From IMG/VR virus record IMGVR_UViG_3300030339_000018: 64,000 nucleotides of DNA; one strand, given 5' to 3'. Positions 3,488-50,725 of the stretch are shown piece by piece. The stretch is from a virus. Its lineage: Duplodnaviria; Heunggongvirae; Uroviricota; Caudoviricetes. The notes beneath the pieces were generated by a model that ran no database searches, was not told the DNA's origin, and was given only the letters and a program-made list of their open reading frames with translations. The stretch's first letter is position 1. Every line of letters starts with the position of its first letter. Made by a program: the position numbers and the translations under genes.

Positions 3488-4576
3488 TTATAATTGAAAT
3501 TGATGTTTTATTTCATCTATTTGTGTCTCCACATGTTCTGTATCATCTATTTTATGTTCTATTTTAGGAGCTTTTAACTCTAAATAAGGTTCATAATCGC
3601 CAATTTCTTTAGCTTTTGGCATTTCTCTAAACATTCCTATTTCTCCAAAAAACGAAGTTCCAAGGTTTAGGTCAGCTTGTCCATACCGATTTTTCAGGAT
3701 TTGCGTTAATCTAAAGCGTTTTTTCAATACATTCTGTATTGGGTAACCTTCACATGTAGCTATCTTTTCTCTATAAGGAAAATAGAGAGCTAATACGACT
3801 TCCGAACCATCTGTAGTTCCTGAAGTGTCTTTAAAATCATCTAATTGAATAAGCTCATATCCATTAGTTTTACGATCCATCCCTTTTGCATTACGATTTA
3901 ATTGTTGTATAAATACACCAGTTAGACCGCACTTATTTCTAAGATAAATAAAAGTATCAACAACTGTATCAATTCTTATTTTTTTAGCATCACTTCCAGA
4001 AATTAATCCAACATGATCAATAAGAACTATTTTATATCTAGATGGATCATCACTAATATAATTTTCAGTATGTTCATCTACTTGTACAAATGTGCCAAAT
4101 TGACTTAACCAGTTTACACAAGTTTTATAAATTCCATTTGGTGTTAATGCTTTATCAAAAATAGTTAAATGCTCTGAAAGAGTTTCTACCCATCCTCTAG
4201 CTAAATTAACTAAATTTTCTTGAGAATCTGAAATTGGTTTAGTCAAAGATAAAATATCTTCATAAGTTACAATTTCATGATATTCATCCCAGATATATCG
4301 TGAGATTAATTTAGCATATAGTACATCAGCAGCCATTTCAAATGAATAATATAAAATAGATATAGGTATATTTTCAGCATTCTTAATTAAATTATATACA
4401 AATACATCTAATGCAAATGAAGTTTTACCCCCAGAAGTATCAGCACCAATTGTGTATAAATATGATTTTTGAATACCATAAATAACGGAATCTAATTTAG
4501 GCATTCCTGTTGAAATTCCAACATTCTTACCCTCCTTACCACGTTTTACGTTTTTGTATAATTTATTAACTCCCAT
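3488..4576 (-). CDS. DnaB-like replicative helicase (RecA-fold C-terminal domain)
   Basis: Walker A GADTSGGKTSFAL, hhhhD Walker B LIDHVGLIS, and a QLNRN arginine-finger-like motif. Confidence 0.5.
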   Translation of the reverse strand: MGVNKLYKNVKRGKEGKNVGISTGMPKLDSVIYGIQKSYLYTIGADTSGGKTSFALDVFVYNLIKNAENIPISILYYSFEMAADVLYAKLISRYIWDEYHEIVTYEDILSLTKPISDSQENLVNLARGWVETLSEHLTIFDKALTPNGIYKTCVNWLSQFGTFVQVDEHTENYISDDPSRYKIVLIDHVGLISGSDAKKIRIDTVVDTFIYLRNKCGLTGVFIQQLNRNAKGMDRKTNGYELIQLDDFKDTSGTTDGSEVVLALYFPYREKIATCEGYPIQNVLKKRFRLTQILKNRYGQADLNLGTSFFGEIGMFREMPKAKEIGDYEPYLELKAPKIEHKIDDTEHVETQIDEIKHQFQL

Positions 4577-5582
4577 ATTATAACAATTCAGAATTATTAT
4601 AACCGTTAATATTATCAGACAATTTTAGTTCTTCAATTTCTAACCATTTCATACTAATTACAAACTCTGTAATACCATAATGGATAAGATCATTTTCTTT
4701 TCCAAAAGTTAATAATTCCATAATTTTAGCATGCATTTCTGGATTAAATTTAATAGCTTTGCCATAAGCAAAACAAAAATCATCCATACTCTTAAATAGT
4801 TTACTAATGTTCTTTAATGAACACTGACGACCTTGAATATTTACAAAACTTGGATAAGTCATAAATAATTCCATTCCCATATCCCCAGAATGTTGATTGA
4901 AGGATTTTAGAAATACTTTATTAAAATCTACATCACGTGGATTAAATGTTGCTCCTTTTTCAGGAATTTTATAGGATTTATTAATAATTCCTTTTTCCTG
5001 TAAGGCTAAGAGAGTATCTCGTGGAGCACCTTTTAGAGGCATTTGACTAAAATATTTGCTTAAATATTCACTATGATCTTCCTGTGCTAAAAATATTAAT
5101 TGAATAATTAAAAATTCTTCAGGAAATAGTTGGTACTTAATCATAAAGTCAAGTTCTCTATCTATTGATAATTCTATTTGTTTCAAATTGGTTAAGTTTT
5201 CTTAACCACTACTTATTGTACCAGTTACGGCTTTATTACTGTCCCCAGTGATTTAATTGTTTTAATCTTGTTATTACATCATTAGGTGTATGCCCATCAA
5301 ATTTATCAGCTAATTCATATTCTGGAATTTTAAATAAATCCCAATCTTTATCTTCATAATGATTACTAATTTGTCCAGAAGGTAATGTAGCCATTACTAT
5401 AAACCAACCACCTCCAAAACATAATTCTCCATCGCTATGTTTCCAAGATTTATGTACATTATATTTAGGAATATCATATTGAGCCCATTCATTAAATAAT
5501 GCTGCATTATACACTTTTCTAAAGTCATATAACTCTCCAAATGTATGATAACCATCTGATATTAAGTTTGTATCCATATTAA

Positions 5583-6002
5583 TTATTTTAATTGTTGCCT
5601 TATAGATTCTAATATTAATCCTAATTTATTTAAACCAGTACCTTTACATTTACCCCAATATCTATCATTCCAAGTATTACCTTCAATTAATTGACATGTT
5701 CCCGTATTTAATAATTTAGTTTTTAAATCTGGATTTTGAGTAAATTTAGCAAGAACTATTCTGTACATTAATAAATCTTTTACTTTCTCCCAATCAGCTC
5801 TAAGATTTACTTTTCTACCTTTGGCTTTAGCAAGATTTGGAGATAAGAATATAAATTCTTTTTGAATAGTTTTATCTAATACTTTTTGAGCTTGAAAAGC
5901 TGCTTCATTATTAGCGTATTCTACTCCTTCAAATACCACAGGAGTTTCATAAAAGTTACTTAAAAAATAATATTCTCCTCGAAATTCATTTATACTATAC
6001 AT
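5583..6002 (-). CDS. NADAR (YbiA/DUF1768) domain protein, putative ADP-ribose/NAD-related N-glycosidase
   Basis: N-terminal EYYFLSNFYETPVVFEGVEYANNEAAFQAQK matches the conserved NADAR core. Confidence 0.5.
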   Translation of the reverse strand: MYSINEFRGEYYFLSNFYETPVVFEGVEYANNEAAFQAQKVLDKTIQKEFIFLSPNLAKAKGRKVNLRADWEKVKDLLMYRIVLAKFTQNPDLKTKLLNTGTCQLIEGNTWNDRYWGKCKGTGLNKLGLILESIRQQLK

Positions 6003-6253
6003 ATTTTGCTAAATACTCGCCATCTTCAATGAAAAAACCTAAAGATGTTAAATCCATAATATCTTCATCTGTAATATCTGCATCAATTAAATTATCAAGA
6101 TCTTCACTCCAAATCATATCATGATTCGCACCTTGAACAACATAATTTGAATATTTAGCTATAATAGATAAACCGATAAATGTATTATTCATTTCGGCTA
6201 CATAATCAGTTTTTGCATTTTCAAATACTTCTATAATTTCTTTTTTTGTCATA

Positions 6254-7237
6254 TTAAAATGTAAATAAAAATTGTTGTTTTTCTTGTACTACTTCTTGTT
6301 TTACTAATTCTTGATTCGTTAAGATATTCATTAGTTCATTTTCATTTATTTCGAAATGACTTAAACCAACTGAACTCTTTTTAAACCAATTTTCTTCCAT
6401 TGTTCCTCTTAGAATTAATGAAAATACTTCAGCATTTTTATTAGCTTCTTTTCTAATAATCCTACCAATTCTCTGTATTCTTTCAGTTGAAGAGCTACTA
6501 TTAGATAAAATAATACCTAAATTTAATTTTGGAATATCCGCACCTGCATTTAATACTTTACTAGTATGAACTACTCCAGTATCTTGCAAACAAAATTCTT
6601 CCATTGTAATTTTATTCTTCTTTTTAGTTTTACCTGAATGCACTACTAAACCTACTTTAAATTTTTCACATTGTGCAATAGTTGCATTAAATGTAATAGC
6701 TTTAGAATCAGGTCTATGTGCTAGAATTAATTCTGCAATTTCAATTTTCTTAGGATGATTTTTTACAAACTCCTTACGTGCTTTCAATGCCCTACCCCAT
6801 GCAAATGCATGAGCAGCAGTTTCAGCTATAATTTGTTTTTCAAATTTTGGATCAGGCTGAATAAATTTAGCATATGCTTTTATACATTGTCTACTAGTTA
6901 ATATTAATTCAGTACCTTTTCTAATACCAGCCATACAACCCATTGCTGTGTTGAACTGATAATCAAAAAATGCAAAATGTTCCATAAATTCTAAATTAGC
7001 TGCATTATATTCAGTTAAATCAACATCAATCATTACTTTGTATTCCTTATAAGGAGATACCCAACCTTTTGCAGTTGCTTCTTTGACTGTAATAGTATCA
7101 ATAATAGGACAATATTTAGCTAATAATGTTTGCTTACCATCTAATCTTTCAAATGTTGCTGTTAATCCTAATATCATTTTAGGTTTACATACATCAAATA
7201 TAGTATAAAATGATTCAGCAGCATACGCATGAACTTC
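6254..7237 (-). CDS. SF2 (DExH) DNA helicase, exon 2 (motifs II-VI)
   Basis: Begins EVHAYAAE (DEVH box completed by exon 1), then TATFERLDG (motif III) and HSGKTKKK...RIGRIIR (motifs V/VI). Confidence 0.6.
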   Translation of the reverse strand, partial: EVHAYAAESFYTIFDVCKPKMILGLTATFERLDGKQTLLAKYCPIIDTITVKEATAKGWVSPYKEYKVMIDVDLTEYNAANLEFMEHFAFFDYQFNTAMGCMAGIRKGTELILTSRQCIKAYAKFIQPDPKFEKQIIAETAAHAFAWGRALKARKEFVKNHPKKIEIAELILAHRPDSKAITFNATIAQCEKFKVGLVVHSGKTKKKNKITMEEFCLQDTGVVHTSKVLNAGADIPKLNLGIILSNSSSSTERIQRIGRIIRKEANKNAEVFSLILRGTMEENWFKKSSVGLSHFEINENELMNILTNQELVKQEVVQEKQQFLFTF

Positions 7238-8535
7238 CATGCTATCCTATAATTTTCACTATAAGTCCGACTATATCTTAATTTTTGTGTTTTTTATTAA
7301 ATATGTATTATTTTTTGTTTTTGTGTTATTACGAATTTGATTACTAATAGTACAATCCTTTAAATTAAAATAAAGAGCTGCTTCAACATTAGTTTTAAAT
7401 TTATTTAAAATAGACCCAATTGAATCTATTTCAAAAATTTTAAAAGTATTATCAAAATAATCAGTAAAATCTAGTATAGGACTAAGACTCCAAAAAGAAT
7501 TTTTCCACATAGTTTTATTTTTAATAGCTGTATCTAAACTACCAGCATTGGAATCTCCACTATTTAAAAATTCAGATATAACATCCCTTTTACTTAAAAA
7601 TACTTTTATTAATTTAAAAGTATCTTTATTATATTGATAATGTTTAAAACCCTTACTTTCTTTAGTAGTTTTTGTAGGTATAAGTTCATAATTTTTATTT
7701 AAAAAATCAGATTCATATAACCAAAAATACCCACCAGCTGTATTTGATCTTTTTTTTAAAACATTGTTAATTGCACCGGAACTTGAAAAATTATGTTCAT
7801 TAGAGGCTTTTACAATTGAATCATATGTTTTAATATAATTACCTAGTAAATCTAATTGTACAATTTTTATTTCGTGCGCAGAAATAGATCTTTGAATTCC
7901 CGAAATAACTCTTTTTTCTTTTGTAATAGATCCTCTACCACCTTTATCAATATTTAAAAGTTTATATCCTAATTCTTTATATTTTTGAATAAGGTCTATT
8001 TCTAGATTTTCCCATTCTGTAACATCGCATTCATCAATTTGTGTAATAATGACATTTTCATTTTTTAACATTAAACTGTAAATCCATTTTGCAACAGGAG
8101 TAACCCTTTTTAAAGGATTTTTTCCAGTATATTTATGTTGTGATAATCTGCTTTTTAAAGTGCAACTTGTTACTCCAACATATCTAACATCTTGCAAATT
8201 TGATTCACTACTTAATGTATAAAATACATATTTTTTAATTTTTTCTTGCATATTTTTAATTTTTAATAATATGCAAAGATAGCAAAAATTTTCGCCATTT
8301 CCAAATGAATTCCAAAATATTTTGAAATTTAAATGTACTCCCTTACGGGATAGTCTGTGAACCTTTTTCCAAAATTTATTTGGAAACTTGGATGCGGATT
8401 GACCAATTCTTTTTGATTTTACCATATCTTTCATCATTACTGAAAGCCATTATATGTATTACTACTATAATTTGGTTAAAAAGACTCTAAGGTTATTCCC
8501 GCAGTTAAACGAATTTAGACTCGACAAAGTTACTA
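7238..8535 (-). mobile_element. group I intron (about 1.3 kb) interrupting the helicase DEVH box, carrying a GIY-YIG homing endonuclease ORF
   Basis: Exon 1 ends ...CTC GAT (LILD, last nt U) and exon 2 starts GAA GTT CAT (EVH). The intron's last nt is G (8535..7238 on minus). The sequence GUCGAG at 13 nt into the intron can pair with exon CUCGAU to form P1 with a U.G at the splice site. Confidence 0.65.
7271..8437 (-). CDS. GIY-YIG homing endonuclease (intron-encoded); true start probably the internal ATG near 8251
   Basis: KYVFYTL...VRYVGVTSCTLKSRLSQHKY GIY-YIG motif. A TAtCTTTG promoter-like motif lies at about 8270-8281, just upstream of the internal ATG. Confidence 0.6.
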   Translation of the reverse strand: MMKDMVKSKRIGQSASKFPNKFWKKVHRLSRKGVHLNFKIFWNSFGNGENFCYLCILLKIKNMQEKIKKYVFYTLSSESNLQDVRYVGVTSCTLKSRLSQHKYTGKNPLKRVTPVAKWIYSLMLKNENVIITQIDECDVTEWENLEIDLIQKYKELGYKLLNIDKGGRGSITKEKRVISGIQRSISAHEIKIVQLDLLGNYIKTYDSIVKASNEHNFSSSGAINNVLKKRSNTAGGYFWLYESDFLNKNYELIPTKTTKESKGFKHYQYNKDTFKLIKVFLSKRDVISEFLNSGDSNAGSLDTAIKNKTMWKNSFWSLSPILDFTDYFDNTFKIFEIDSIGSILNKFKTNVEAALYFNLKDCTISNQIRNNTKTKNNTYLIKNTKIKI

Positions 8536-8832
8536 ATCGAGTATTAAGAGATCACAAAAAAAAGGTTGTTTTATTGCAGAATTAATAATTTTAACTTCTG
8601 CATTAAAACTTAATCCTTTTTTATCTAATATAGATATCCACTGACCTCTTAAATAATCAGTAGGTACAATTACTATAATTTTTTTTCTTGGATTTTTTAC
8701 AATAAATCTGTTGATAGCAATAATTGCTGCTGTAGTTTTTCCAAATCCAGTGCAAAATTCCCAGGTTCCATTACATCTATTTTTAATCCATTTTTCTACA
8801 GCTTCTAGCTGTCTATCATCTCTACTACTCAT
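8536..8832 (-). CDS. SF2 (DExH) DNA helicase, exon 1 (motifs I-II up to LLILD)
   Basis: GFGKTTAAIIAI Walker A (motif I) and ...CDLLILD, immediately followed by TAG and the intron. Confidence 0.6.
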
Positions 8833-9547
8833 TACTTATATAATTAATTATGTTTTTAGAAAACAAAATTAATTGTTCTTCTGTTGCTGAATTTTTCATT
8901 GAATTTGCTAACATTGAAATTACTTGAACATTTCCAACAATATAACCTTTAGAATTATTAATTCTATCTAAAGAATAAGTTTTAGAATAATCATCTTTTG
9001 TTCCTTTAATTAATTCAATTCCTAAAATTGGACAATGTGTAGGAAGTATAATATCTTCTTTTACTAAATTAAAATCTAAATTATTTTTTTTAGCTCTTTT
9101 TTTAGCAGCAGATAACATATGAGTTATTATACCATTTTCTGTATTTAAATAATCATTACTTATTTTATTTAAATAATCATTATATTCAGAATCTTCTTTT
9201 CGTTTTATATTTTTATTATCATTACATGTTTCAATATATTTTTGTCTGTTAGGATGTTCTAATACTATTTGTCTTTCACATTCTTTACATCTTGAATATA
9301 TTTTATTTTTTCCATCTTTATTTTTAGCACTTAAAATATAAAAATTTTCTAATAATAATATTTTTTTACAATTGGTACATTGTTTATGTCCTTCTGGAAT
9401 ATCTACTGTTTCTTTAGGTATATATTCTCTTCCAGCTTTTTCAGCTCTTTTTTTACTTTCCTCTTTATTTTTACATTTGGAACATTTATGATTACTATAA
9501 AACTTAGTTTCTGTATCATTTTTTCCACAAATTGTGCATACTTTCAT
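8825..9547 (-). CDS. HNH homing endonuclease (HNH_3-like) with N-terminal Cys-rich zinc-finger repeats
   Basis: LPTHCPILG...SLDRINNSKGYIVGNVQVIS...AN..KN motif. It is freestanding between the helicase and polB; its 3' end overlaps the helicase start. Confidence 0.55.
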   Translation of the reverse strand: MKVCTICGKNDTETKFYSNHKCSKCKNKEESKKRAEKAGREYIPKETVDIPEGHKQCTNCKKILLLENFYILSAKNKDGKNKIYSRCKECERQIVLEHPNRQKYIETCNDNKNIKRKEDSEYNDYLNKISNDYLNTENGIITHMLSAAKKRAKKNNLDFNLVKEDIILPTHCPILGIELIKGTKDDYSKTYSLDRINNSKGYIVGNVQVISMLANSMKNSATEEQLILFSKNIINYISNE

Positions 9548-34796: not shown

Positions 34797-34848
34797 TTAT
34801 ATTTTTATTGTACCCGGGCCGAGAATCAAACTCGGATTTGAACGTTAG

Positions 34849-34921
34849 TATGCAAGCTGCGAATCGAACGCAGGACACTCGGTTTAGAAAACCGATGCTC
34901 TATCCCCTGAGCTACAAGCAC
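34849..34921 (-). tRNA. tRNA-Arg (anticodon TCT); acceptor stem carries U.U mismatches
   Basis: D arm GCTCAGGGGATAGAGC, anticodon arm TCGGT-TTTCTAA-ACCGA, T arm CTGCG-TTCGATT-CGCAG. Coordinates approximate. Confidence 0.55.
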
Positions 34922-34924
34922 ATA

Positions 34925-35512
34925 TTACTTATCTTTAGGATAGCGAAATTCATTTCTTGCACTATTCTTATTCTTTGATTTAAATGTATCTAATTGAGAA
35001 TCACAGTTAGGACAAATACACCTATAATTTTCTCTAATGTTATTTGCTGCATCTCCATCAATATGATCTAATATTAAAACTAAATGTTTATTATTCCATA
35101 CAGAATCCATCCCACAAATTGCACATTTATTACCTTGTTCTTTAAGAATAAAAGGTTTTACAGTAGTAATACTATAATTACCTCTTTGATATTCTTTTGG
35201 AGAAGTAAGAAAATAATCATATAATTCTTTAGATTGAAATTCTTTTTGACATGTAATTCCACAATATTTTCTTTGAGTAGTTGTATCTAAAGGTTTTCCA
35301 CAATTTACACAAACTAAATCAGCATATTTATTTACACCTTTTCTAAATGTTTCAGATTCATTTATCTTTCTACGTTGTGGTAATTCAATTCCAAATTTTT
35401 TAGCAACTTTTCTTATATTTGAACCAGTGCAACCATAAGTTAAACCAATTGTATTATAAGGGATATTTTGTACTAAAATTAACTCCTCTAATTCTTCTTT
35501 TATATATTCCAT
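34925..35512 (-). CDS. HNH endonuclease with Zn-ribbon repeats
   Basis: ...LVLILDHIDGDAANNIRENYRCICPNCD... HNH motif; TAcCTTTG promoter-like motif at about 35529-35545 upstream. Confidence 0.5.
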   Translation of the reverse strand: MEYIKEELEELILVQNIPYNTIGLTYGCTGSNIRKVAKKFGIELPQRRKINESETFRKGVNKYADLVCVNCGKPLDTTTQRKYCGITCQKEFQSKELYDYFLTSPKEYQRGNYSITTVKPFILKEQGNKCAICGMDSVWNNKHLVLILDHIDGDAANNIRENYRCICPNCDSQLDTFKSKNKNSARNEFRYPKDK

Positions 35513-35630
35513 TTTTATTAATTATTTATACTACAAAGGTACAAATAATTTTTGATATAAAATAGTTTGAATTAGTTAATTTATGTTAAAAGTGTACTGT
35601 TCTATTCAGTTGAACTATCCAGGCATTTAG

Positions 35631-35701
35631 CAAGTACACTAGGATTCGAGCCTAGATCAGGAGTTTTGGAGACTCTTATGCTACCATTGAATCATATACC
35701 T
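35631..35701 (-). tRNA. tRNA-Trp (anticodon CCA)
   Basis: Anticodon loop CTCCAAA; T arm CTAGG-CTCGAAT-CCTAG. D arm is imperfect. Approximate coordinates. Confidence 0.45.
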
Positions 35702-36138
35702 ATTTTAATTAATATCACATATTAAAGCTTTTCTTTTTTCACAAACTCCATAATAAAATTTAAGATTTTTTAATCCTCTCAAATAAACATTTTGTCTTTG
35801 TGTATCATCCCAATGAATTACAATTTTTGATTTTATAGTTTTATCTGTAATCCAATAATTTGGTTTATTTTTAATATATTCAATAAAATGTTTAATACAA
35901 TTTTTTGCCCATATTAAACTCTTTAATCCATCTTTTCCAGTTACTTTTAAAAATTGATAACCTTCTTTTCTTTTACCAATTTGTAATTTAACATAATACC
36001 AATCACATTTATTAGTACTATCACATTCTAATTCTAAAAAAAGAATTTGACCTGCTTCATTTTTAGTAATATAATAATAAATATCTTTATATTTATTATT
36101 AGGTTTTAATACAATTTCATACATATTATTAATTTTTG

Positions 36139-36219
36139 TACATATAGCAGGACTCGAACCTGCACGCCCCTACGAGCATCGGAGTCTAAACCCGATATGT
36201 CTACCATTCCATCATATAC
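36139..36219 (-). tRNA. tRNA-Leu (anticodon TAG), type II
   Basis: Anticodon loop TTTAGAC, long variable arm GCTCGTAGGGGCGTGC, T arm GCAGG-TTCGAGT-CCTGC. Confidence 0.6.
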
Positions 36220-36226
36220 GCATTTG

Positions 36227-36299
36227 AGCCAAAGGTGGGGCACGATCCCACAACCCTCTCATTACAAGTGAGATACTCTACCAATTGAGCTACTTCGGC
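36227..36299 (-). tRNA. tRNA-Thr (anticodon TGT)
   Basis: GCCGAAG acceptor, D arm GCTCAATTGGTAGAGT, anticodon arm TCTCA-CTTGTAA-TGAGA. Confidence 0.65.
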
Positions 36300-36435
36300 A
36301 ATTTTAGAGGGTCACTATTAACCTCTTTGATGTTGTTTCTTCTTATTCGTACACGTGTTTGAAATTCAGACTGGACTACATTTCTTTACCAGATAGTTTT
36401 AAATATATAAGACTAATGAAAACCTATATATCTTG

Positions 36436-36522
36436 CGGAGAGTACCGGATTCGAACCGATGTGCCCTGTTACAGGCCACTAGTTTAGCAAACTAGCACGA
36501 TAAACCACTCTGCCAACTCTCC
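36436..36522 (-). tRNA. tRNA-Ser (anticodon GCT), type II
   Basis: GGAGAGT/ACTCTCC acceptor, anticodon arm CTAGT-TTGCTAA-ACTAG, long variable arm, T arm ATCGG-TTCGAAT-CCGGT. Confidence 0.65.
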
Positions 36523-37073
36523 AATACATTACTTATGTTGCATATGATAGTGTTTAACTCTCAAATCAACTTTACTTTGTTTTAATTTACTATTAGCAAA
36601 TAAGTTATAAACAGGTTCTTCTAATATGTGATGAATAACATATATAGGAAAATTTAATATATCTATACCAATACAATATTTAACTATCATATTTTTCTTG
36701 CAAATTTATGAATCAACCATCCAAAAACTAAAACAGCCCCTATTATAATTCCAATAATAATTCCAATTCCTATTTTAAACATTATTTTTTAATTTACGTT
36801 TTTGACCATGATATTTAATTTCAATCATAAATATTCATAAGTGACCTTCTTTTTTTTTCCAATCATCTCCATATGATAAACCGCATTAATAGGTCTATCT
36901 TCAATTATACAAACTCCATTCCCAATATAATTATACGATCTTGCATACATTTTATCATTGGTGGAATCTCTAATACATATTTCTTTACCTTTTAAATACT
37001 GCCAATTAATTATAACATCATTACATAATTGATGAAAACTTCCTTGAACTATTTGCATATTATTTAATTTTTG

Positions 37074-37161
37074 GGTGAAAGGTGGGATTCGAACCCACAT
37101 TAGTCATTACAACATTCCTGATTCACAATCAGGTCGGCATCCCTTACCGGCTACAATCACC
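37074..37161 (-). tRNA. tRNA-His-like (anticodon GTG), non-canonical: two U.U pairs in the acceptor stem and about 18 nt between the anticodon and T arms
   Basis: Anticodon arm CCTGA-TTGTGAA-TCAGG, T arm GTGGG-TTCGAAT-CCCAC, possible G-1. Confidence 0.35.
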
Positions 37162-37171
37162 ATATAAAAAG

Positions 37172-37254
37172 TGGGACATGATGGAGTCGAACCACCCGAG
37201 TCCGAAGACAACTGCTTTACAGGCAGTCCCGCTACCCCTACGGTATAACATCCC
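37172..37254 (-). tRNA. tRNA-Tyr (anticodon GTA), type II
   Basis: Anticodon arm ACTGC-CTGTAAA-GCAGT, long variable arm TTGTCTTCGGACTCGG, T arm GGTGG-TTCGACT-CCATC. Confidence 0.6.
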
Positions 37255-37554
37255 ATATAATAGTCTTTCCTATCAGTCATACTTCCTTTAAATTCTGTTT
37301 AGATAATTCATCCTAACGGCAAAGCAGTATTGTATAAACCAGTATTCTTTAAAATTATGCTTGTACCGGAGTATTAGCTTCTTTAATTTTTTCAGCAATT
37401 TTAGTATTAACTGCTTTTAAATTTGCTTGTGCTTGTTCAACTGTAACTATTTGATCATAAGCTAATGCTTTTAAATCATTTAATGACATTGTATCAAGAT
37501 TTACTTGTTGTTCATTCATTGTTTTAATTTTGACTATTATTTATCTCTTTTTAT

Positions 37555-38031
37555 TTATCTTACATTTATAATATTACTAAGTGTACCTTTACTACTAATA
37601 TTATATTTTAACATTAAATCTTTATAAGAATATCCAGAGTCACGATCAGCTTTAATTTCTATAACTAATTCATCTGAATATTTTTTATGTGCATTAGAAG
37701 CTTTATTAATTCTTATTTCTTTAGATTGATCCATCATATTATCACTATGTGTACCTATTTTAAGATTATCCCAAGAATTATTTAAAGAATTACTATCCAT
37801 ATGTCGAATCATTATATTTTCTTTATAAATTTCTTCTCCAAATTTTTGATATGCTTGTAATCTATGTACTCTAACTTTAATAGTTTTACCTAGTAATTTT
37901 GTACTAATAGTTTTATAACCATTATTAATTGTGCCTAATAAAATTTTTCCAGATTTACTAATGCATGTACCATCTTTTTCAACTTTGTACCCTAAATCAA
38001 AAAGTACTTTTTCATAATATGTATATTCCAT
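37555..38031 (-). CDS. HNH_3-family homing endonuclease
   Basis: ...VHRLQAYQKFGEEI...IRHMDSNSLNNSWDNLKIGTHSDNMMD... It is preceded directly by a tRNA-like gene. Confidence 0.5.
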   Translation of the reverse strand: MEYTYYEKVLFDLGYKVEKDGTCISKSGKILLGTINNGYKTISTKLLGKTIKVRVHRLQAYQKFGEEIYKENIMIRHMDSNSLNNSWDNLKIGTHSDNMMDQSKEIRINKASNAHKKYSDELVIEIKADRDSGYSYKDLMLKYNISSKGTLSNIINVR

Positions 38032-38044
38032 ATAATAATTTAAG

Positions 38045-38127
38045 CGGAAGAAGTAGGTCCCGACCCCAAGATGTTTCCGTCCGTACAGATTTCAAGTCTG
38101 TCTTGCTACCTAAGCAATTCATCTTCC
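38045..38127 (-). tRNA. tRNA-Ser-like (anticodon TGA if minus strand), type II-like with aberrant T arm; possibly a pseudo-tRNA
   Basis: Acceptor GGAAGAT/TTCTTCC, D arm TTGC-TTAGGTA-GCAA, perfectly palindromic anticodon stem ACAGA-CTTGAAA-TCTGT. No canonical TTCRA T loop. Confidence 0.3.
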
Positions 38128-38206
38128 ATTAACGAGATTGCTTTGAACCTCTAAAGTCAACCTATATTGATACATATAGGATTTTAGTCTTTCTGGAGAA
38201 AGAATA

Positions 38207-38992
38207 TTATTTTTTAACTATATTTAAAATATCATAAAATTTACACCATTTTCTTATAGCATTATCTGTAACACCATAAAATTTACCAACAGCAACAAAT
38301 GAAATTAATTCTTTAAATTTAGATATAAGTTCTTCAGAAGTAGGTCTTTTACTACCATTAATTTTGTGTGAACATTCTTGAGAACAACATTTATTTTTTC
38401 TAGATTTACCAATTAATTCTTTATTACAGTATAAGCAATATTTAGGAATAATTTCTTTAATTTCTTTAACTTTAATTTCTTTAATTATTTCAATTGGAAT
38501 AATATTTTCATTCACAATAAGACTTTCTTCTTTTTTACCTTTACCTCTATAATTATCAGTAAAAGCGTGACAATTAGGGCATAACATTTGTAAATTTTCA
38601 ATACAATGATTAGTATTTACTCCATCAATATGATGTAATTCTAAAGGAATAGGTTCTTCCATTCATTCAGTATTATTACATTTTTCACATCTATATTCCT
38701 TAATACCTTCTTTTAATAATCTTTTATTTAATTTTGATGTAGAAAAAGTAGAATAAGATACTAAAATTTCTTCAATTGGTTGGGCAAATTTAATTTGTGT
38801 ATATCTTAATCCAACATTCCATACTTGCCCAGTAAAATGATCTGTATTTAAATCATATTCTTTAATTTTAGCATGAATTGTTTTGTAATTTCCTCCAACT
38901 GCTTTTAATCCTATTTGTCGGCATACTCCAGCAATAGATAAATTTTCTTTTACTGCAATTCTAATTTGTTCTTCTGTGTACTTAGTTCTCAT
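38207..38992 (-). CDS. HNH homing endonuclease with N-terminal HTH and C-terminal DNA-binding module; single gene containing an in-frame TGA at 38663-38665
   Basis: ORF-track pieces 38663..38992 and 38207..38662 are in one frame. TGA lies between YRCEKCNNTE and MEEPIPLELHHIDGVNTNHCIENLQMLCPNCH, so the CxxC...HH...N...CxxCH HNH motif spans the TGA. TAcCTTTG promoter-like motif at about 39009-39025. Confidence 0.6.
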
Positions 38993-39074
38993 TTTTATAA
39001 TTATTTAATACACAAAGGTACTAAATAATTTTGAGTCTACCAAATCGAATTATGTTAAAATATATTAAAAATAG

Positions 39075-39155
39075 TACCCGTAGCAGGAGTCCAACCTGCA
39101 CGCTTTTAGGCGCTCCCGCTTAAAAGGAGTGTGTCTAGCATTTCACCATACGGGT
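39075..39155 (-). tRNA. tRNA-Leu (anticodon TAA), type II
   Basis: ACCCGTA/TACGGGT acceptor, anticodon arm CTCCT-TTTAAGC-GGGAG, variable arm CGCCTAAAAGCGT, T arm GCAGG-TTGGACT-CCTGC. Confidence 0.55.
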
Positions 39156-39209
39156 ATTAATTGATTATTTTATATATAATCATAGTTTTAAGAACCATTC
39201 GTTCTTTGT

Positions 39210-39280
39210 TGTCCCATCTAGATTCGAACTAGAGCTATTTGAGTCAAAGTCAAATGTGTTAGACCACTACACTATGGAAC
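39210..39280 (-). tRNA. tRNA-Gln (anticodon TTG)
   Basis: Anticodon arm TTTGA-CTTTGAC-TCAAA; T arm CTAGTTCGAATCTAG. Confidence 0.6.
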
Positions 39281-39548
39281 AATATTATTTTTCTATGCAG
39301 TAAGTGCTTAGACTTGCCTATCATACCTATCAGAATCATTTAATCTGGCACTAATCTTGGTTAGAAAAATTTAATTTAAAGGTACTGAATATCTTAACCC
39401 ACCAGTACAGTCTCAATTCAATTGTATCGCTGTATACGAATACCTTCATGAGGATGGAAGAATTGCTCACACGTTACCTTTATATTGTAAGAATATCATC
39501 ATTAGAAATACAATAAATTGTATTTCATCACACTACTATATTCTTGAG

Positions 39549-39619
39549 CGGGAAGTGTAGGAATCGAACCTACGCCTATTGATTAACAGTCAACTGCTCG
39601 ACCTTCGAGCTAACAACCC
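39549..39619 (-). tRNA. tRNA-Asn (anticodon GTT); acceptor stem with two U.U pairs
   Basis: D arm GCTCGAAGGTCGAGC, anticodon arm GTTGA-CTGTTAA-TCAAT, T arm GTAGG-TTCGATT-CCTAC. Confidence 0.55.
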
Positions 39620-39742
39620 AGTTTATAATTTTTGCTTACCATCGCTTCACTGTTAAAATTACAAAAATACATCAGTTACCATTATCGTTGTTTCTGCATC
39701 AACGCTTCATCCGAAGAGGTCTATAGTCGGTTACTATAACTG

Positions 39743-39816
39743 AGCGATAAGTGGGTCTCCAACCCACAACCTCCGACTTGGAAGGACGGCACTCTAAGCA
39801 ATTGAGCTATTATCGC
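39743..39816 (-). tRNA. tRNA-Gly (anticodon TCC)
   Basis: GCGATAA/TTATCGC acceptor, anticodon arm CCGTC-CTTCCAA-GTCGG (one U.U), T arm GTGGG-TTGGAGA-CCCAC. Confidence 0.5.
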
Positions 39817-40248
39817 ATTTTAATTTAATACTATATCAGGGGTTTTCTATTGTACATTTAGCGAGCTCCCTTATACACATCATGACTAAATTCATGTTAT
39901 TTCCATTTTACAGAAACTATAATATTAAATTATTTTATTAGTTGTAATCTATCAAAGATTAAACCATTATTTTCTATTGCTATGGCTGTAATTGTGCCAC
40001 ATAAATCTGGTTCATGAAATTCAGAAAATGTATATCCATTGTTTGCTAACTTTGGAATCCATTCATCTAAATTTGCTGATAAAAAGAATAAATAGTTGTT
40101 ATTCCATTCTTGTGTTTCTTTATTATCAAGGAGGAATTGTGCTACTGCATGTGCTCCTTGGACACATCCATATACGCTATTTAATCTATTATTAATTAAT
40201 ACGTATAGTTTTCTTTCTTCTACTTGTTCCATTATTATTATTATTTTG

Positions 40249-40320
40249 TGCACCGCCCCAGACTTGAACTGGGAACCTATCGGTTAAAAGCCGAGAGCTC
40301 TACATTGGAGCTAGCGGTGC
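40249..40320 (-). tRNA. tRNA-Lys (anticodon TTT)
   Basis: GCACCGC/GCGGTGC acceptor, anticodon loop CTTTTAA, T arm CCCAG-TTCAAGT-CTGGG. Confidence 0.6.
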
Positions 40321-40481
40321 GAGTTTGTTGGAATAGGCAAATCACCAACTATGATACATGCATTGAAAAGAATCACTTTTACTAATTGTATCTTTCACAT
40401 AAAAGTAGATAATGTGATTAGCATTAAACGTACTTTTTCTATACTAAGTGATGTAGCAGAGCAGTTTATTAAACTGTTGTG

Positions 40482-40553
40482 TGAGCCTAATAGGAGTCGA
40501 ACCTATATCCCAGGATTCGTAATCCTGTGTTCTATCCATTGAACTATAAGCTC
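40482..40553 (-). tRNA. tRNA-Arg (anticodon ACG)
   Basis: Anticodon arm CAGGA-TTACGAA-TCCTG, T arm ATAGG-TTCGACT-CCTAT. Confidence 0.6.
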
Positions 40554-40563
40554 TCATTAATTG

Positions 40564-40636
40564 TGACCTCTGCTGGATTTGAACCAGCGACACCTAGATC
40601 TTCAATCTAGTGCTCTACCAACTGAGCTAAGAGGTC
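40564..40636 (-). tRNA. tRNA-Phe (anticodon GAA)
   Basis: GACCTCT/AGAGGTC acceptor, D arm GCTCAGTTGGTAGAGC, anticodon arm CTAGA-TTGAAGA-TCTAG, T arm GCTGG-TTCAAAT-CCAGC. Confidence 0.7.
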
Positions 40637-40683
40637 AAGCAAGATTTTTACTTCTAGGAAGAAATACCTTGAAAAAGAACCGT

Positions 40684-40753
40684 TGCGATATCAAGAATTG
40701 AACTTGAATCAAATGGATATGAGCCAAACATTCTACCATTGAACTATATCACA
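40684..40753 (-). tRNA. tRNA-Met/Ile2-type (anticodon CAT), elongator-like
   Basis: Acceptor TGTGATA/TATCGCA, anticodon loop CTCATAT, anticodon stem with two U.U mismatches, T arm TCAAG-TTCAATT-CTTGA. Confidence 0.5.
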
Positions 40754-40754
40754 G

Positions 40755-40828
40755 TGGGGAAAATAGGACTTGAACCTATGACCTCCCGGGTATCAGCCGG
40801 ACGCTCTAACCAACTGAGCTATATCCCC
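40755..40828 (-). tRNA. tRNA-Ile (anticodon GAT)
   Basis: D arm GCTCAGTTGGTTAGAGC, anticodon arm TCCGG-CTGATAC-CCGGG, T arm ATAGG-TTCAAGT-CCTAT. Confidence 0.65.
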
Positions 40829-41164
40829 ATTATTTTTCTAAATATTGGAATATAAAAATCTATGGATTGTATATCTTTTCTATGAATAGATACTTTATAA
40901 TTATCATATCTTTTAGATGTATTAGGTTGTCCAATTGGATCTTTCCATATTCTAAAATCTTTCATTACAAAATTTATGTATTCTCCTTCAAATACAACAT
41001 CTATTGGATAATGATAATACTCATTCATACCACTAGGTTTTAATTTATGTAGTATAATCCAACAAATTCTTTTATTACTTAATAATCTTGGTAAACTTTT
41101 AAAAACTTTTCTTGTCATTTGGATGTATTTTATTAATTAATACTGTCCGCCATTTTAATAATTT

Positions 41165-41239
41165 GAGCTCATACTCCGATTTGAACGGAGGAAATATTGG
41201 TTTTGCAGACCAACGCGTTAGACCACTTCGCCATATGAG
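41165..41239 (-). tRNA. tRNA-Cys (anticodon GCA)
   Basis: GCTCATA/TATGAGC acceptor, anticodon arm TTGGT-CTGCAAA-ACCAA, T arm TCCG-TTCAAAT-CGGA. Confidence 0.65.
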
Positions 41240-41402
41240 CATTTAAAAATTCAGTTCTTGCATAAGAAATAATAAACGTTAATTAGTTTTTTGTACGGGA
41301 GTTACACCTATTTATTATATTTACACAAACTAACTTATGCCTAAGTAAATAGCCCACTATATACGCTTCCACTATTTGTTTGCTTCAATCTGAATTTTAT
41401 TG

Positions 41403-41535
41403 TTGCGAGCGCCGGATTCGAACCGTGTCTCGGGGTTATAGCTTTATTCTATTCTAAAATAAATTTTAGTTTGAACATTTCACAGACTTTTAAACCTGTA
41501 TGAGCCCAGTGAGCTACCATTGCTCCACCCTCGCA
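41403..41535 (-). tRNA. initiator-like tRNA (anticodon CAT, GGG/CCC anticodon stem) interrupted by an intervening sequence of about 62 nt in the anticodon loop
   Basis: 5' half GCGAGGG-TG-GAGCAATGGTAGCTC-A-CTGGG-CTCATA..., 3' half ...CCCCG-AGAC-ACGGTTCGAATCCGG-CGCTCGCA. Between them lies about 62 nt of AU-rich sequence with the hairpin CTAAAATTTATTTTAG. Confidence 0.4.
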
Positions 41536-41549
41536 TCTGTTATATTTTG

Positions 41550-41622
41550 TATAAGCGGTGAGACTCGAACTCACGACCACATGCTCCCAAAGCATGCATT
41601 CTACCAACTGAAATACGCCTAT
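41550..41622 (-). tRNA. tRNA-Pro (anticodon TGG)
   Basis: Anticodon arm CATGC-TTTGGGA-GCATG, T arm GTGAG-TTCGAGT-CTCAC. Confidence 0.6.
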
Positions 41623-41729
41623 ATTTAATTAGAAATCCAATTTTTCAGGATCTTTGAAAGATAAAAACTCATTTGCGAATAATAATCCGTTCTTTAAATA
41701 AATATCTTGTTTCATATCTAAATCATTTG

Positions 41730-41802
41730 CAGTACTGATGGGAATCAAACCCACTAAATCTCGATAGACAGTCGAGTGCACCAATCGTTATGCGCCAGTA
41801 CT
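41730..41802 (-). tRNA. tRNA-Asp (anticodon GTC)
   Basis: AGTACTG/CAGTACT acceptor, anticodon arm CTCGA-CTGTCTA-TCGAG, T arm GTGGG-TTTGATT-CCCAT. Confidence 0.6.
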
Positions 41803-41808
41803 ATTTTT

Positions 41809-41882
41809 GTAATCGGTATCGGATTCAAACCGATGTTACTTCATAGAAGGTGAAGTGTGCTAGGTCACTGCACTAACCGATC
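41809..41882 (-). tRNA. tRNA-Glu (anticodon TTC)
   Basis: D arm GTGCAGTGACCTAGCAC, anticodon arm CTTCA-CCTTCTA-TGAAG, T arm ATCGG-TTTGAAT-CCGAT. Confidence 0.6.
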
Positions 41883-41885
41883 ATT

Positions 41886-42806
41886 TTATTTTAATAACTT
41901 AATATCCTTTTGTTTAGATGGTAATTCATAAAATTTACACCATTTTCTTATTGTATTGTCACTTACTCCAAAATCCTTTCCTAATTTTAAAAAAGAATTC
42001 ATCTTAATTAATTCTAATAAATCTTCTTTAGAGGGTCTTTCAACTTTTCTTTGATTTAAAGCTCTTAGTTTTTCTTTTTCAGAATAACCATTTTCGTCAC
42101 GAAATACTTTTTCTTTAATCTTAGGCATTGTAACAATACCTATCGTTTGATAAATAATTTCTTTTGTTTCAAGAGAATGTAAAACTATTTGAATAACTTC
42201 ATCAATATTAGTTTTAATCTGATTTTCAGCAATTCTAATAATATTCCAACCATTGTTTTTTAATAACAAATCCTTTTCGCCATCTTTAATTTTTCTTTCC
42301 TCTAACAAATGTTGAGAACCATCTATCTCAATAGCTAACTTTTCATTAATGAACGCAAAATCAATAAAATATGGAAATACACTATATTCTCTTGCAATTA
42401 AGTATTTTTTATCTAATTCAAATCTTTCTAAGGCTTCTTTAAATAAATTTTCAGGATAAGATATAGTGGAAGTTCTCCAAGCTGTATTCTCTGGATGTTC
42501 TTTCATATATTTTAGTCTAGCAATTCTTATTTTTTCTTTAGACTCATCAGAATGATGTAATGTATACTTTTTAGAAGCAATTTTTCGTGCTTCAGAAAAA
42601 GAACGAGTAAGTCCTTTTAAAATTCTTTGAACTATACAAGTAGATAAATCATATTCTTTTTTAATATCATTTATAGAATAATTTAATTCTATATATTTAT
42701 TTTTAATATCTAACAAATTTAATGCTGTTAATTTACATGCATTTTGATGGGCAATTTGTCCGCCTTTATTAGAAAATTCTAGTCCACATTTTTCACAAAT
42801 ATTCAT
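41886..42806 (-). CDS. homing-endonuclease-like protein: N-terminal Zn finger, central restriction-endonuclease-like (DUF559/Vsr-like) domain, C-terminal HTH module
   Basis: CEKCGLEFSNKGGQIAHQNAC; FAFINEKLAIEIDGSQH; C-terminal KLGKDFGVSDNTIRKWCKFYELP, the same module found in the HNH at 38207..38992. TAtCTTTG promoter-like motif at about 42814-42828. Confidence 0.4.
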   Translation of the reverse strand: MNICEKCGLEFSNKGGQIAHQNACKLTALNLLDIKNKYIELNYSINDIKKEYDLSTCIVQRILKGLTRSFSEARKIASKKYTLHHSDESKEKIRIARLKYMKEHPENTAWRTSTISYPENLFKEALERFELDKKYLIAREYSVFPYFIDFAFINEKLAIEIDGSQHLLEERKIKDGEKDLLLKNNGWNIIRIAENQIKTNIDEVIQIVLHSLETKEIIYQTIGIVTMPKIKEKVFRDENGYSEKEKLRALNQRKVERPSKEDLLELIKMNSFLKLGKDFGVSDNTIRKWCKFYELPSKQKDIKLLK

Positions 42807-43441
42807 TTTATACTATTTTATATAGTACAAAGATAATAAAAATATTTGGTTAGGACAATAGAATTTCAAAATTAATTAAAAATAAGTTTAATGGATAAGT
42901 TAATCAAAAATATAAATATCTAACACGAGTTAAATATTTATATTTCTAACCAATTATTCGATAGGGATGTGAAAATTATACCTATTGTAGTAGGTATAAT
43001 TTATATAAAGTACCATCAATTGCTTCTAGTAAATCATCCAGAATAGCATGCATATGTGTGTATTTTGCATCTATAACATCATATCTATTTTCATAGATCA
43101 TTTCTTTTATACCCTCAAGATACTCTGTTGCAGTTAATTTATATCCATAAATTAAACTACTAAGATCATACTCTACTACTTTTTGTTCACAGCCCTGATA
43201 AACCTCTATTAATCTATCTGCAATTTCAGGAACTTCTTGATAAAAATCATTTAATGCTAAATGTTTAATACCAGAACTTGCTCCTTGGATTTGTAAATGT
43301 TTGATATGTGACATCGTCCCTATGGAAACTATTGTTCCAAAAAAACTTTCAGGTTTTGTTTTAATTTTACCCATATTTTAATATTTTTTATTATTTAATT
43401 ATCTTAATCTGTACAAAACTTTAATTCTTTTTCTATTTTTA

Positions 43442-43981
43442 TTAGAATACATTATTTTTTAAATACTGATTATAAACATAAGCAGCATGTAATTCACAGA
43501 TAAAATATCCTAAAAATATTTTTCTTTTTAATACTGAATCCCATATATTAGATAGCCATTTCTTCCTAGTTTCTACCCAACATACACCTGTATATTGAGA
43601 TGAAGTATTAGTTCTAACATACCCATCACTTACATTATATCTATTAGAAACAATTTCCAAATTATCTAAATAATTATTTAATTTATTCCCATCAATATGA
43701 TTAATAACAGTAGTTCTTTTATTTACTATATAATCAAGAAAAGACATAGCAACTAAAATATGAATACAATAACTTTTTCTAATTTTATTTTTTGTAAGAT
43801 TTACAGATAAATAATTAGTTCCACATGGTTTTAATATTTTATCTTTTTTAGCTTTATTATTACCTAATGATAATATATTACCAAAATTACTACATTTATA
43901 TAATCCTTCAAATGTAGGTATATCTTTCCAAATTTCTTGCATATTTTCCTTTGTTTTATTTAATATGCAAAGATACAACAT
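43442..43981 (-). CDS. HNH endonuclease fused to an AP2-like DNA-binding domain; true start probably an internal ATG near 43942
   Basis: ...INHIDGNKLNNYLDNLEIVSNRYN... followed by YTGVCWVETRKKW (AP2 YxGVxW). TAtCTTTG promoter-like motif at about 43973-43988. Confidence 0.5.
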   Translation of the reverse strand: MLYLCILNKTKENMQEIWKDIPTFEGLYKCSNFGNILSLGNNKAKKDKILKPCGTNYLSVNLTKNKIRKSYCIHILVAMSFLDYIVNKRTTVINHIDGNKLNNYLDNLEIVSNRYNVSDGYVRTNTSSQYTGVCWVETRKKWLSNIWDSVLKRKIFLGYFICELHAAYVYNQYLKNNVF

Positions 43982-44030
43982 TTTTTCGACATAAAAAAAT
44001 TAAAATCAAGTTTTATTTAAAATTTCTTAA

Positions 44031-44762
44031 TTACTGTTCATTTGTTGGTTTAAGCCAAAGTTTGGTATGTTTAAAAATATACAACTTTAAATCCCTATAT
44101 TTACACAACATTTCTAAAGTTTTAAATGTATCAAACTTAAAACATTTGTATAACTCTTCACGAATACGTTCTTCAGACACAACTCCCATTTTGTATTCAT
44201 AATCATAGTTCTCAATAACTTCTTGCATATTTGCTGGAATAGCTAAATTTTTAGTTAATGCAAAACGAATAGCTCTTAAAATTCTAAGGGGATCATCATT
44301 AAATGTTACATTACATGGAAGAGGTGTTCTAAGAATTCTAGCTCTTAAATCAGCTTCTCCATTAAATGGATCAATAATATTTCCATCTTCATCTTTAGCC
44401 ATAGCATTAACTGTAAAATCCCTACGTTCAAGATCATCATATAATGAACCAGGTACAATAATAGGTGTACGAGTTCCAGGTATATAACCAATTTCCTTAC
44501 GTGCCATTACAAAATCAGCAACACCTTTATATTTATGTCCTACTGGAAATTTAGCACGAATTGTATAACAATCTTTAGTTACTAAAAATATTTCAAACAT
44601 ATCTCTTCTTAAGATTTGTTCCAATAAAATAAACATATCACTAGCTTTACTATGTGAAGCAAGTAATATATCATTTGGAACAGCAACATAATCGACATCT
44701 TTATTTACTAATCCAAGAAATTCATCTCGAATCTTACCACCTACTTCATAGAATTTAAACAT
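44031..44762 (-). CDS. minimal class II nucleotidyltransferase (CCA-adding enzyme / poly(A) polymerase head domain)
   Basis: VGGKIRDEFLGLVNKDVDYVAV, i.e. the GGxxRD...DxD head-domain signature; 243 aa. Confidence 0.55.
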   Translation of the reverse strand: MFKFYEVGGKIRDEFLGLVNKDVDYVAVPNDILLASHSKASDMFILLEQILRRDMFEIFLVTKDCYTIRAKFPVGHKYKGVADFVMARKEIGYIPGTRTPIIVPGSLYDDLERRDFTVNAMAKDEDGNIIDPFNGEADLRARILRTPLPCNVTFNDDPLRILRAIRFALTKNLAIPANMQEVIENYDYEYKMGVVSEERIREELYKCFKFDTFKTLEMLCKYRDLKLYIFKHTKLWLKPTNEQ

Positions 44763-50622: not shown

Positions 50623-50648
50623 AATAATTTATTTTATGTTATTAATTG

Positions 50649-50725
50649 TGGTATTAGAAAGATTCGAACCTTCAACCTCGTACCTTGCGGGTTTAACGTG
50701 CTCTAACCAATTGAGCTATAATACC
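50649..50725 (-). tRNA. tRNA-like gene with canonical acceptor, D and T arms but a non-canonical 25-nt anticodon/variable region; identity undetermined
   Basis: GGTATTA-TA-GCTCAATTGGTTAGAGC-A-[CGTTAAACCCGCAAGGTACGAGGTT]-GAAGG-TTCGAAT-CTTTC-TAATACC-A. No 5-bp stem plus 7-nt loop can be drawn in the bracketed part. Confidence 0.4.

Follow-up and report, generated by a model that had tools for sequence, protein, structure and literature searches.

Results

A helicase gene interrupted at its DEVH box

The 64,000-nucleotide stretch analyzed here, referred to as the window, belongs to a virus of the class Caudoviricetes (IMG/VR record IMGVR_UViG_3300030339_000018). On its minus strand, between positions 6254 and 8832, lie the two halves of a superfamily 2 (SF2) helicase gene, separated by a 1298-nucleotide insert that is very probably a mobile group I intron with its own homing endonuclease gene (Table 1). 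The first half, exon 1, encodes a polypeptide ending in ...FFCDLLILD; its last codon, GAT (8538..8536), is directly followed by a TAG stop, and TAA stops stand at in-frame codons 2 and 7, which makes three stops within seven codons. The second open reading frame (ORF), read from its ATG, spans 7240..6254 and begins M-EVHAYAAESF..., exon 2 proper opening with the GAA codon at 7237..7235. The insert is preceded by an exonic U and its last base is a G. Reading the minus strand thus reproduced the exon coordinates, the CDLLILD end with its TAG, the EVHAYAAE start and the limits of the insert as they had been given in an earlier interpretation of this DNA, which was made from the letters alone and is called below the sequence-only reading. 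Joining the exons yields 426 amino acids and a stop; the 427-residue product of that reading has the length of the joined frame, with the stop counted as a residue.

The N-terminal part of the Pfam domains ResIII and DEAD falls on exon 1, and the remainder of ResIII, together with Helicase_C and ERCC3_RAD25_C, on exon 2. After joining, motifs I, II (DExH) and VI are contiguous and both RecA domains, RecA1 and RecA2, are present. The joined protein matched the archaeal XPB structure 2FWR (E 2.4e-24) and the DNA helicases of PHROG 16 (E 4.6e-34), so that by homology the host gene is predicted to be an XPB/Rad25-like SF2 helicase gene. A UvsW/RecG-like identity, as first proposed, was dropped because the closest solved relatives are XPB/Rad25 proteins. 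The best match among isolates was Cellulophaga phage phi14:2, at 26%, and a search for a close cultured phage found none.

More than 1000 homologs of the 426-residue product were retrieved, hundreds of which are 410-433 amino acids long and cover 100% of it. In the alignment, the full-length homologs read ...[LF]LILDE[VI]H... without a gap over the junction, which bears out the SF2 motif II (LLILD-EVH) expected on joining. The nearest uninterrupted homolog, P0001 (89% amino acid identity), carries FLILDEVHAYAAESF. At the DNA level, empty sites were found in L131 (from a soil metagenome), L004 and L005/L006, where 57-68 of 80 nucleotides match exon 1 plus exon 2; the L131 allele, also at 89% amino acid identity, reads TTAATACTAGAT before and GAAGTACATGCG after the junction. 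Because this empty-site DNA aligns across both exons without an indel, the 1298 nucleotides are an insertion at one exact phosphodiester bond, whose presence or absence varies among close relatives. Judged by these homologs and empty sites, the splitting of the DEVH box is far beyond chance. The same intron occupies the same ILD/E[VC]H boundary in two further phage contigs, L127 and L128, with endonucleases 57-58% identical to that of the window, so that the DEVH site is occupied in three phages. The last leucine codon of exon 1 is CTC, which gives a perfect P1, in 3/3 intron-bearing alleles and CTA or TTA in 4/4 empty ones. This pattern could reflect the P1 pairing constraint or co-conversion during homing.

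Table 1. Positions in the window of the helicase exons, the predicted intron and its structural elements, and the predicted endonuclease ORF
Feature	Position	Strand	Description
Helicase exon 1	8536..8832	-	99 codons, with motif I (GFGKT), motif Ia and the D that opens DEVH; Pfam ResIII E 3.8e-8, DEAD E 6.4e-7
Helicase exon 2	6254..7237	-	EVH of motif II to motif VI, C-terminus, stop; end of ResIII (last 30 positions), Helicase_C E 1.7e-10, ERCC3_RAD25_C
Group I intron (predicted)	7238..8535	-	1298 nt; partial RF00028 match, R1 model, covariation, exact absence from homologous genes
P1 5' strand, CUCGAU	8536..8541	-	Last six exon-1 bases; U8536 is the 5' splice site
Internal guide sequence	8520..8531	-	AACUUU (P10 strand, 8531..8526), then GUCGAG (P1 strand, 8525..8520)
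P10 3' strand, GAAGUU	7232..7237	-	First six exon-2 bases; 6 bp with AACUUU
P3 5' strand, UUCGUU	8508..8513	-	Pairs with GGCGAA; 5/6 pairs change on both sides among relatives
P3 3' strand, GGCGAA	8291..8296	-	Pairs with UUCGUU
P4-P5 domain	8393..8503	-	P4 UGCGGG (8503..8498)/UCCGCA (8398..8393) around the three-way junction P5, P5a, P5b, P5c
P6 hairpin	8362..8391	-	From RF00028 and R1 alignments; 5/9 pairs change on both sides
J6/7 and P7 5' strand, R element UUCACAGACUA	8351..8361	-	Aligned to RF00028 consensus GUUCAaAGACUA
P7.1 hairpin UCCC-GUAA-GGGA	8339..8350	-	3/4 pairs change on both sides
P7.2 region	8297..8335	-	AAUUUCAA/UUGGAAUU hairpin and short conserved UUCAUUUGGAAAUG; constrained fold
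P8 5' strand AAUUUUUG	8283..8290	-	Helix closing the ORF-bearing loop; 5/6 tested pairs change on both sides
P8 3' strand CAAAAAUU	7280..7287	-	8 bp with AAUUUUUG; inside the ORF end
J8/7 and P7 3' strand, S element AAGAUAUAGUC	7269..7279	-	Identical to RF00028 consensus; contains the ORF stop UAG 7273..7271
P9 hairpin CUUAUAG-UGAAAA-UUAUAGG	7246..7266	-	dG -5.4 kcal/mol; 4/7 pairs change on both sides
Terminal G (omega-G)	7238	-	3' splice site
Homing endonuclease ORF (predicted)	7271..8251	-	326 aa, in P8 loop; GIY-YIG at about residues 7-105 (N-terminal), then NUMOD1/I-HmuI-like DNA-binding modules

The insert carries a group I ribozyme core

When the Rfam group I model RF00028 was run on the ORF-free 5' part of the insert, it gave a partial match (26.2 bits, E 7e-5), aligning UGCGGGAA as the 5' strand of P4, AAUCCGCA as its 3' strand, the P6 hairpin, and GGUUCACAGACUA as J6/7-P7. 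The 3' strand of P7 was recognized by eye beyond the ORF, followed by the P9 hairpin and the final ...AUG, and all four consensus elements P, Q, R and S of RF00028 have counterparts in the intron. A covariance model built from 28 relatives with the window excluded, hereafter R1, matched the insert end to end on 8517..8351 with 142.6 bits (E ~7e-28 under a rough calibration), a score as high as those of the relatives themselves. This was the only strong match in the 64 kb. A second one, at 62644-62716 on the minus strand (13.1 bits, E 0.57), was taken as noise: it is intergenic, lies upstream of a 70-residue ORF and has no split gene near it.

The relatives of this core are numerous. At least 120 viral contigs (L007-L126), several giant-virus bins (GVMAG) among them, share its P4-P5 signature, TGCGGGRANNNCCTTAGAG, and two or three copies are found on each of L035, L037, L048, L103 and L123. 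Compact relatives bearing this signature clear the RF00028 threshold (14 matches, 64-107 bits). By blastn, the 5' core also led to DNA polymerase genes interrupted by gaps in the crAss-like phages cr127_1 (L001) and cr271_1 (L003) and in Vibrio phage Va1 (L002); in these three records the polymerase is annotated as two coding sequences with an unannotated gap that holds a group I intron of the R1 family, and an Rfam search of them at E <= 0.01 returned no match. Further blastn matches were the intron in the endolysin gene of a Staphylococcus Twortvirinae phage and a sequence in PhiPA3, for which R1 scored 136.1 bits (PALS_1, locus L132) and 117 bits. By these scores and alignments the window ribozyme, the Twortvirinae lysin intron and the polymerase introns of the crAss-like phages are assigned to one family. 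In L004, a related 70-kb contig, R1 found two more matches, at 6514-6667 (74.1 bits) and 8666-8743 (52.5 bits), the latter adjoining a 156-residue ORF of the GIY-YIG type; these are, by the model, additional introns of the same family in other genes.

These results also bear on the idea that there is no intron at all and that the halves are joined through stop reassignment or read-through, an intein, a group II intron or translational bypass. The TAG immediately after exon 1 invites such a thought, and TAG recoding is reported for some gut phages (bioRxiv 10.1101/2021.08.26.457843). Read-through would have to cross the TAG and both TAA codons, recoding finds no suppressor among the 20 tRNAs of the window, and the ORF of the insert lies in a different register with its own start. 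Neither a Hint/intein nor a reverse-transcriptase domain was found with Pfam, the insert matches group I models and no others, and 1298 nucleotides far exceed any known bypass. We regard these routes as so improbable as to be negligible.

Structure of the intron and its comparative support

All helices of the group I core, P3-P4-P6 and P7-P8-P9, could be located, including the P3/P7 pseudoknot. P1 is formed by 6 bp between the exonic CUCGAU and the guide GUCGAG, with a U.G pair at the splice site that is invariant in 5/5 aligned introns, as the sequence-only reading had described; GUCGAG itself occupies intron nucleotides 11-16, not a position 13 nucleotides into the intron. In L127, P1 is preserved with one G-C to G-U change. 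The P10 guide strand lies immediately 5' of the P1 guide strand, and P10 shows a compensatory change, from AACUUU/GAAGUU in the window to UACUUU/GAAGUA in L128, five of the six pairs being retained in L127. P2 is absent between P1 and P3. The P4-P5 domain matches the P and Q elements of RF00028 as well as R1, and P5, P5a and P5b covary. P7 (GACUA/UAGUC) and P4 are invariant in the aligned introns, and a terminal G is present in 3/3 introns with a known 3' splice site (window, L128, L127). With the P7.2 region taken as a putative helix, the succession P7-P7.1-P7.2-P3'-P8 would correspond to the one known from introns of subgroup IA, T4 td for example.

Covariation was measured on the ORF-deleted introns of the window, L127, L128, cr127_1 and cr271_1, five mutually related sequences onto which a structure drawn from the window was laid. 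Paired cells amounted to 93.3% in this alignment, against 78.8% after shuffling and 35-43% after sliding; 37 of 82 pairs were changed on both sides (shuffled 16.7, slid 5-13), and the covariation score was 0.48 (shuffled 0.19, slid 0.06-0.10). None of 500 shuffles reached the observed covariation values. The changes are well illustrated by P3, for which UUCGUU/GGCGAA, CUCAUU/GGUGAG, CCUAUC/GGUAGG and UGUGGU/GCCACA are found across the aligned introns. A MAFFT alignment of 27 introns was unusable for P7.1-P8 owing to length variation, and anchored, alignment-free tests on 35-47 compact introns, together with the five-sequence alignment, took its place. In these tests self complementarity exceeded non-self complementarity for P3 (6.19 vs 4.86) and P8 (5.93 vs 4.21), and the P9 hairpin averaged -7.3 kcal/mol over compact introns compared with -2.4 kcal/mol when shuffled; the p-values of the anchored tests are inflated by relatedness among the introns.

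The same structure helps to judge whether the insert might be a non-splicing spacer in a fractured helicase, the 99-residue N-terminal fragment ending in D and a 328-residue C-terminal fragment (MEVH, from the ATG at 7240) assembling non-covalently. Gene callers do annotate two ORFs, and an AGGA stands a few bases upstream of the 7240 ATG. That AGGA is the 3' strand of P9, and the ATG consists of the last three bases of the intron, ending in omega-G; it is not conserved, the corresponding boundaries being ..UUUAG/GAAG in L128 and ..ACUG/GAAU in L127. A fractured enzyme would carry the D and the E of its Walker B/DEVH box on separate chains, and the ribozyme retains, intact and compensatorily constrained, all the elements that splicing requires. 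This arrangement therefore appears very unlikely to us.

A predicted, divergent I-TevI-type endonuclease is encoded in the P8 loop

Gene callers extend the ORF of the intron to 388 amino acids, starting at 8437 and running through the ribozyme core. Eleven homologs of 320-325 amino acids support the ATG at 8251 as the likelier start. With Pfam, the ORF gave NUMOD1 alone, at 21.4 bits (cutoff 22.8), and neither PHROGs nor a phmmer search of the Protein Data Bank (PDB) with the ORF produced a match. The family as a whole was more informative. Among its 17 members, 6 match PF01541 (GIY-YIG; best E 3.8e-10), 15 match NUMOD1 and 16 match I-HmuI_NUMOD-like, while the residues Y11, Y24, G26, R35, H39, E84 and N100 are invariant in all 17. 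A profile of the family matched a single sequence of the PDB, the catalytic domain of I-TevI (1MK0, E 0.0045), residues 9-100 of the ORF aligning with residues 5-91 of 1MK0. The alpha/beta fold of GIY-YIG enzymes and a separate DNA-binding module are both present in the ORF. By fold and catalytic residues its product is an intact although divergent GIY-YIG enzyme of the I-TevI type, with a predicted endonuclease activity, in line with the intact GIY-YIG ORF of the sequence-only reading.

The last codons of the ORF, AUU AAG AUA UAG, are at the same time the P8 3', J8/7 and P7 3' strands of the ribozyme, and most close homologs end in ..IKI because these strands encode it. Such an overlap of ORF and core is a known arrangement (PMC3984707). 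Upstream of the ORF, the octamer TATCTTTG lies at 8281..8274 on the minus strand, 22 nucleotides before the 8251 ATG, and had been taken for a promoter-like element. We dropped it as promoter evidence, since the motif class is enriched neither overall (TAnnTTTG occurs 115 times in the window, 120 being expected) nor 10-45 nucleotides upstream of ORFs (7 of 109; control windows inside genes, 1-9 of 109). The octamer is also found 25 nucleotides upstream of the ORF that starts at 9547 and before the L004 endonuclease, so that it may yet have a promoter role.

Observations in the neighborhood of the helicase gene

Other insertions were seen around this gene. A second, different insert splits the helicase inside the Walker A motif (CTGVG/KTRAG) in L004 (2578-3787) and at the 5' ends of L127 and L128. 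It contains a 305-residue ORF matching PF01541 (E 1.6e-11), and R1 found no match in the L004 copy; the ribozyme, if any, would therefore be of another type. In L127, a 249-residue helicase fragment is followed downstream by a second GIY-YIG ORF. In L131, the closest relative without the DEVH-site intron, the helicase breaks off near the C-terminal end (..TMEENW; 4161-4346) next to a 57-residue GIY-YIG fragment, and a LAGLIDADG ORF divides the PolA gene (1294-2887), where R1 has a match at 2047-2126 (48.6 bits). In the window, a 240-residue ORF (8825-9547, minus strand) separates the DNA polymerase gene from the helicase gene, whose start it overlaps by 8 nucleotides; it matched PHROG families of endonuclease VII and HNH endonucleases (E 5e-27 to 9e-27). 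This ORF probably represents the insertion of a free-standing homing endonuclease, since L004 and L131 have no counterpart between the two genes.

Downstream of the helicase, precomputed Pfam assignments for the identical locus L129 indicate a NADAR-domain ORF (PF08719; 5583-6002, minus strand) and a WDGH-domain ORF (5236-5577, minus strand); the corresponding place of L004 (5014-5495) holds Sequestin and Tad2-like ORFs. All of these may be anti-defense genes. The minus strand carries 108 of the 109 long ORFs of the window and also 20 tRNA genes (34848-50725) for 18 amino acids, with Arg, Leu and Cys represented twice each, no Ala or Val and no suppressor. A full-length Rfam tmRNA match (RF00023, 75.5 bits, E 1.6e-27) lies at 53981-54400 on the minus strand, where ARAGORN did not report a tmRNA.

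Discussion

A probable mobile group I intron in a phage helicase gene

We consider it highly probable that, in an uncultured phage, a mobile group I intron interrupts the gene of an XPB/Rad25-type SF2 helicase between the D and the E of its DEVH box. The interruption is exact, the ribozyme core is present and its helices covary, the endonuclease has the GIY-YIG fold, the intron is polymorphic in presence and absence, and three phages have it at the same site. This comparative ground gives good support to the prediction that the insert is a group I intron, that it carries the ORF of a homing endonuclease and that it divides SF2 motif II, and we infer that it splices in vivo, that its endonuclease is active and that it homes. 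The group I nature proposed by the sequence-only reading is upheld: a P3-P9 core, whose absence would have spoken against it, was found by the partial RF00028 match, by R1 (142.6 bits) and by covariation.

Several points weigh against this interpretation. The RF00028 search of the whole insert (6000-9200) at E <= 1 gave no match, and what the 5' part yielded stays below the curated gathering score of 50 bits, so that the Rfam check suggested by the sequence-only reading gave a match below the threshold on the 5' part and none on the insert as a whole, and thus failed as a curated test. The shortfall is explained by the 1-kb ORF in the P8 loop (L8), which is too long for the model to bridge; the filtered search was insensitive on this intron, the match being recovered by limiting it to the ORF-free part, and the gathering score sets a limit for detection and is no biological criterion. 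PF01541 had no Pfam match in the ORF even at E <= 10, the P7.2 region folds but its exact pairing is not fixed by comparison, the covariation comes from few and related introns, and an in-frame ATG (7240..7238) sits directly at the boundary of intron and exon 2.

Two of these points, the RF00028 score under the threshold and the missing match to the Pfam GIY-YIG model, could also be read as decay: an endonuclease cassette with a dead ribozyme would have inactivated the helicase, which would now be a tolerated pseudogene. Against such decay, both exons keep open frames at 89% identity to the uninterrupted relative, an identical intron ORF is present on at least 24 contigs of up to 168 kb from different samples, the R1 score of the core is as high as those of its relatives, and the catalytic residues of the endonuclease are intact. 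We find a decaying element hardly credible.

According to the mobile-intron scenario, the split helicase gene would be transcribed as a single pre-mRNA. The ribozyme would fold, first with P1 (exonic CUCGAU on the guide GUCGAG, with U.G at the splice site) and then with the P3-P9 core, including P7.1/P7.2 and lacking P2. An exogenous G would attack after U8536, and exon 2 would be aligned by P10 (AACUUU/GAAGUU). The freed 3'-OH of exon 1 would then attack after the terminal G7238, giving the GAU/GAA junction and ..LLILDEVH.. in a 426-residue helicase. In a mixed infection, the 326-residue I-TevI-type endonuclease would cut the intron-less helicase allele near the DEVH codons, and repair from the intron-bearing copy would copy in the intron together with some flanking exon.

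Comparison with known introns

The closest paradigm is T4 td/I-TevI. In both cases a group I intron lies in an essential phage gene of DNA metabolism and codes for an endonuclease whose GIY-YIG domain is N-terminal and whose DNA-binding region is C-terminal, and I-TevI is the top structural and profile match of the window enzyme. The td intron has P7.1/P7.2 between P7 and P3', where the window intron has P7.1 and a putative P7.2, and the td ORF loops out of P6a. The host genes differ, a thymidylate synthase gene for td and a helicase gene here; the window ORF is placed in the loop of P8 and extends into P8/J8-7/P7, the window intron has no P2, and the DNA-binding part of its enzyme is of the NUMOD1/I-HmuI type, with a catalytic domain too divergent for PF01541. 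The element is thus the td/I-TevI paradigm in another host gene and with another ORF position, a textbook kind of mobile element.

The Twortvirinae endolysin intron (phage K/G1 type, PALS_1) comes close to the window intron in its R1 score and likewise has its ORF after the P7 5' strand. Its host gene and insertion site are different, the identity is about 70% over a core of only about 120 nucleotides, and its ORF, of the HNH type in phage K, is another protein, annotated as hypothetical in PALS_1. The polymerase introns of cr127_1, cr271_1 and Va1 are the best DNA matches to the core (67-75% identity) and share the layout P1/no P2/P3/P7.1/P3'/P8/P9 with compensatory changes; in contrast, they interrupt DNA polymerase genes, and that of cr271_1 (about 390 nucleotides) has no ORF. 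Introns in helicase genes of Staphylococcus Twortvirinae phages have already been reported (PMC5526547). Published work also documents group I introns on a mass scale in jumbo phages of the gut, their splicing being proved by metatranscriptomics (PMC12880540).

Significance for annotation and for the biology of the gene

The understanding of group I introns is not changed by the helicase intron. Its consequences concern annotation in the first place: gene callers report the helicase as two ORFs and make the endonuclease too long, at 388 amino acids, and both Rfam at default settings and Pfam miss the element. Considering the 120 or more viral contigs that bear the signature, many gene calls that are now in fragments could be mended with a model tailored to the family, such as R1. 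Homing sites in the codons of critical residues are a known theme (PMC3984707), and the predicted endonuclease of the DEVH site would add one more example in which the target codons specify catalytic residues.

The helicase gene has at least three alternative intron sites across relatives, in the Walker A motif (GVG/KT; L004, L127, L128), in the DExH box (window, L127, L128) and near the C-terminus (L131). We tentatively propose, while rating the idea as rather improbable, that the gene is a contested hot spot where several intron/endonuclease pairs, unrelated to one another, each occupy a catalytic motif of their own, and that endonuclease translation and splicing are mutually exclusive. In the DExH-site lineage, ribosomes finishing the endonuclease would unfold the catalytic core, because the ..IKI-stop end is encoded by the P8/J8-7/P7 strand. 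If this were true, translation of the endonuclease would exclude splicing of the helicase mRNA and would constitute a built-in switch. Within this one helicase gene, the occupied and empty sites form a natural series in which intron/endonuclease competition could be studied.

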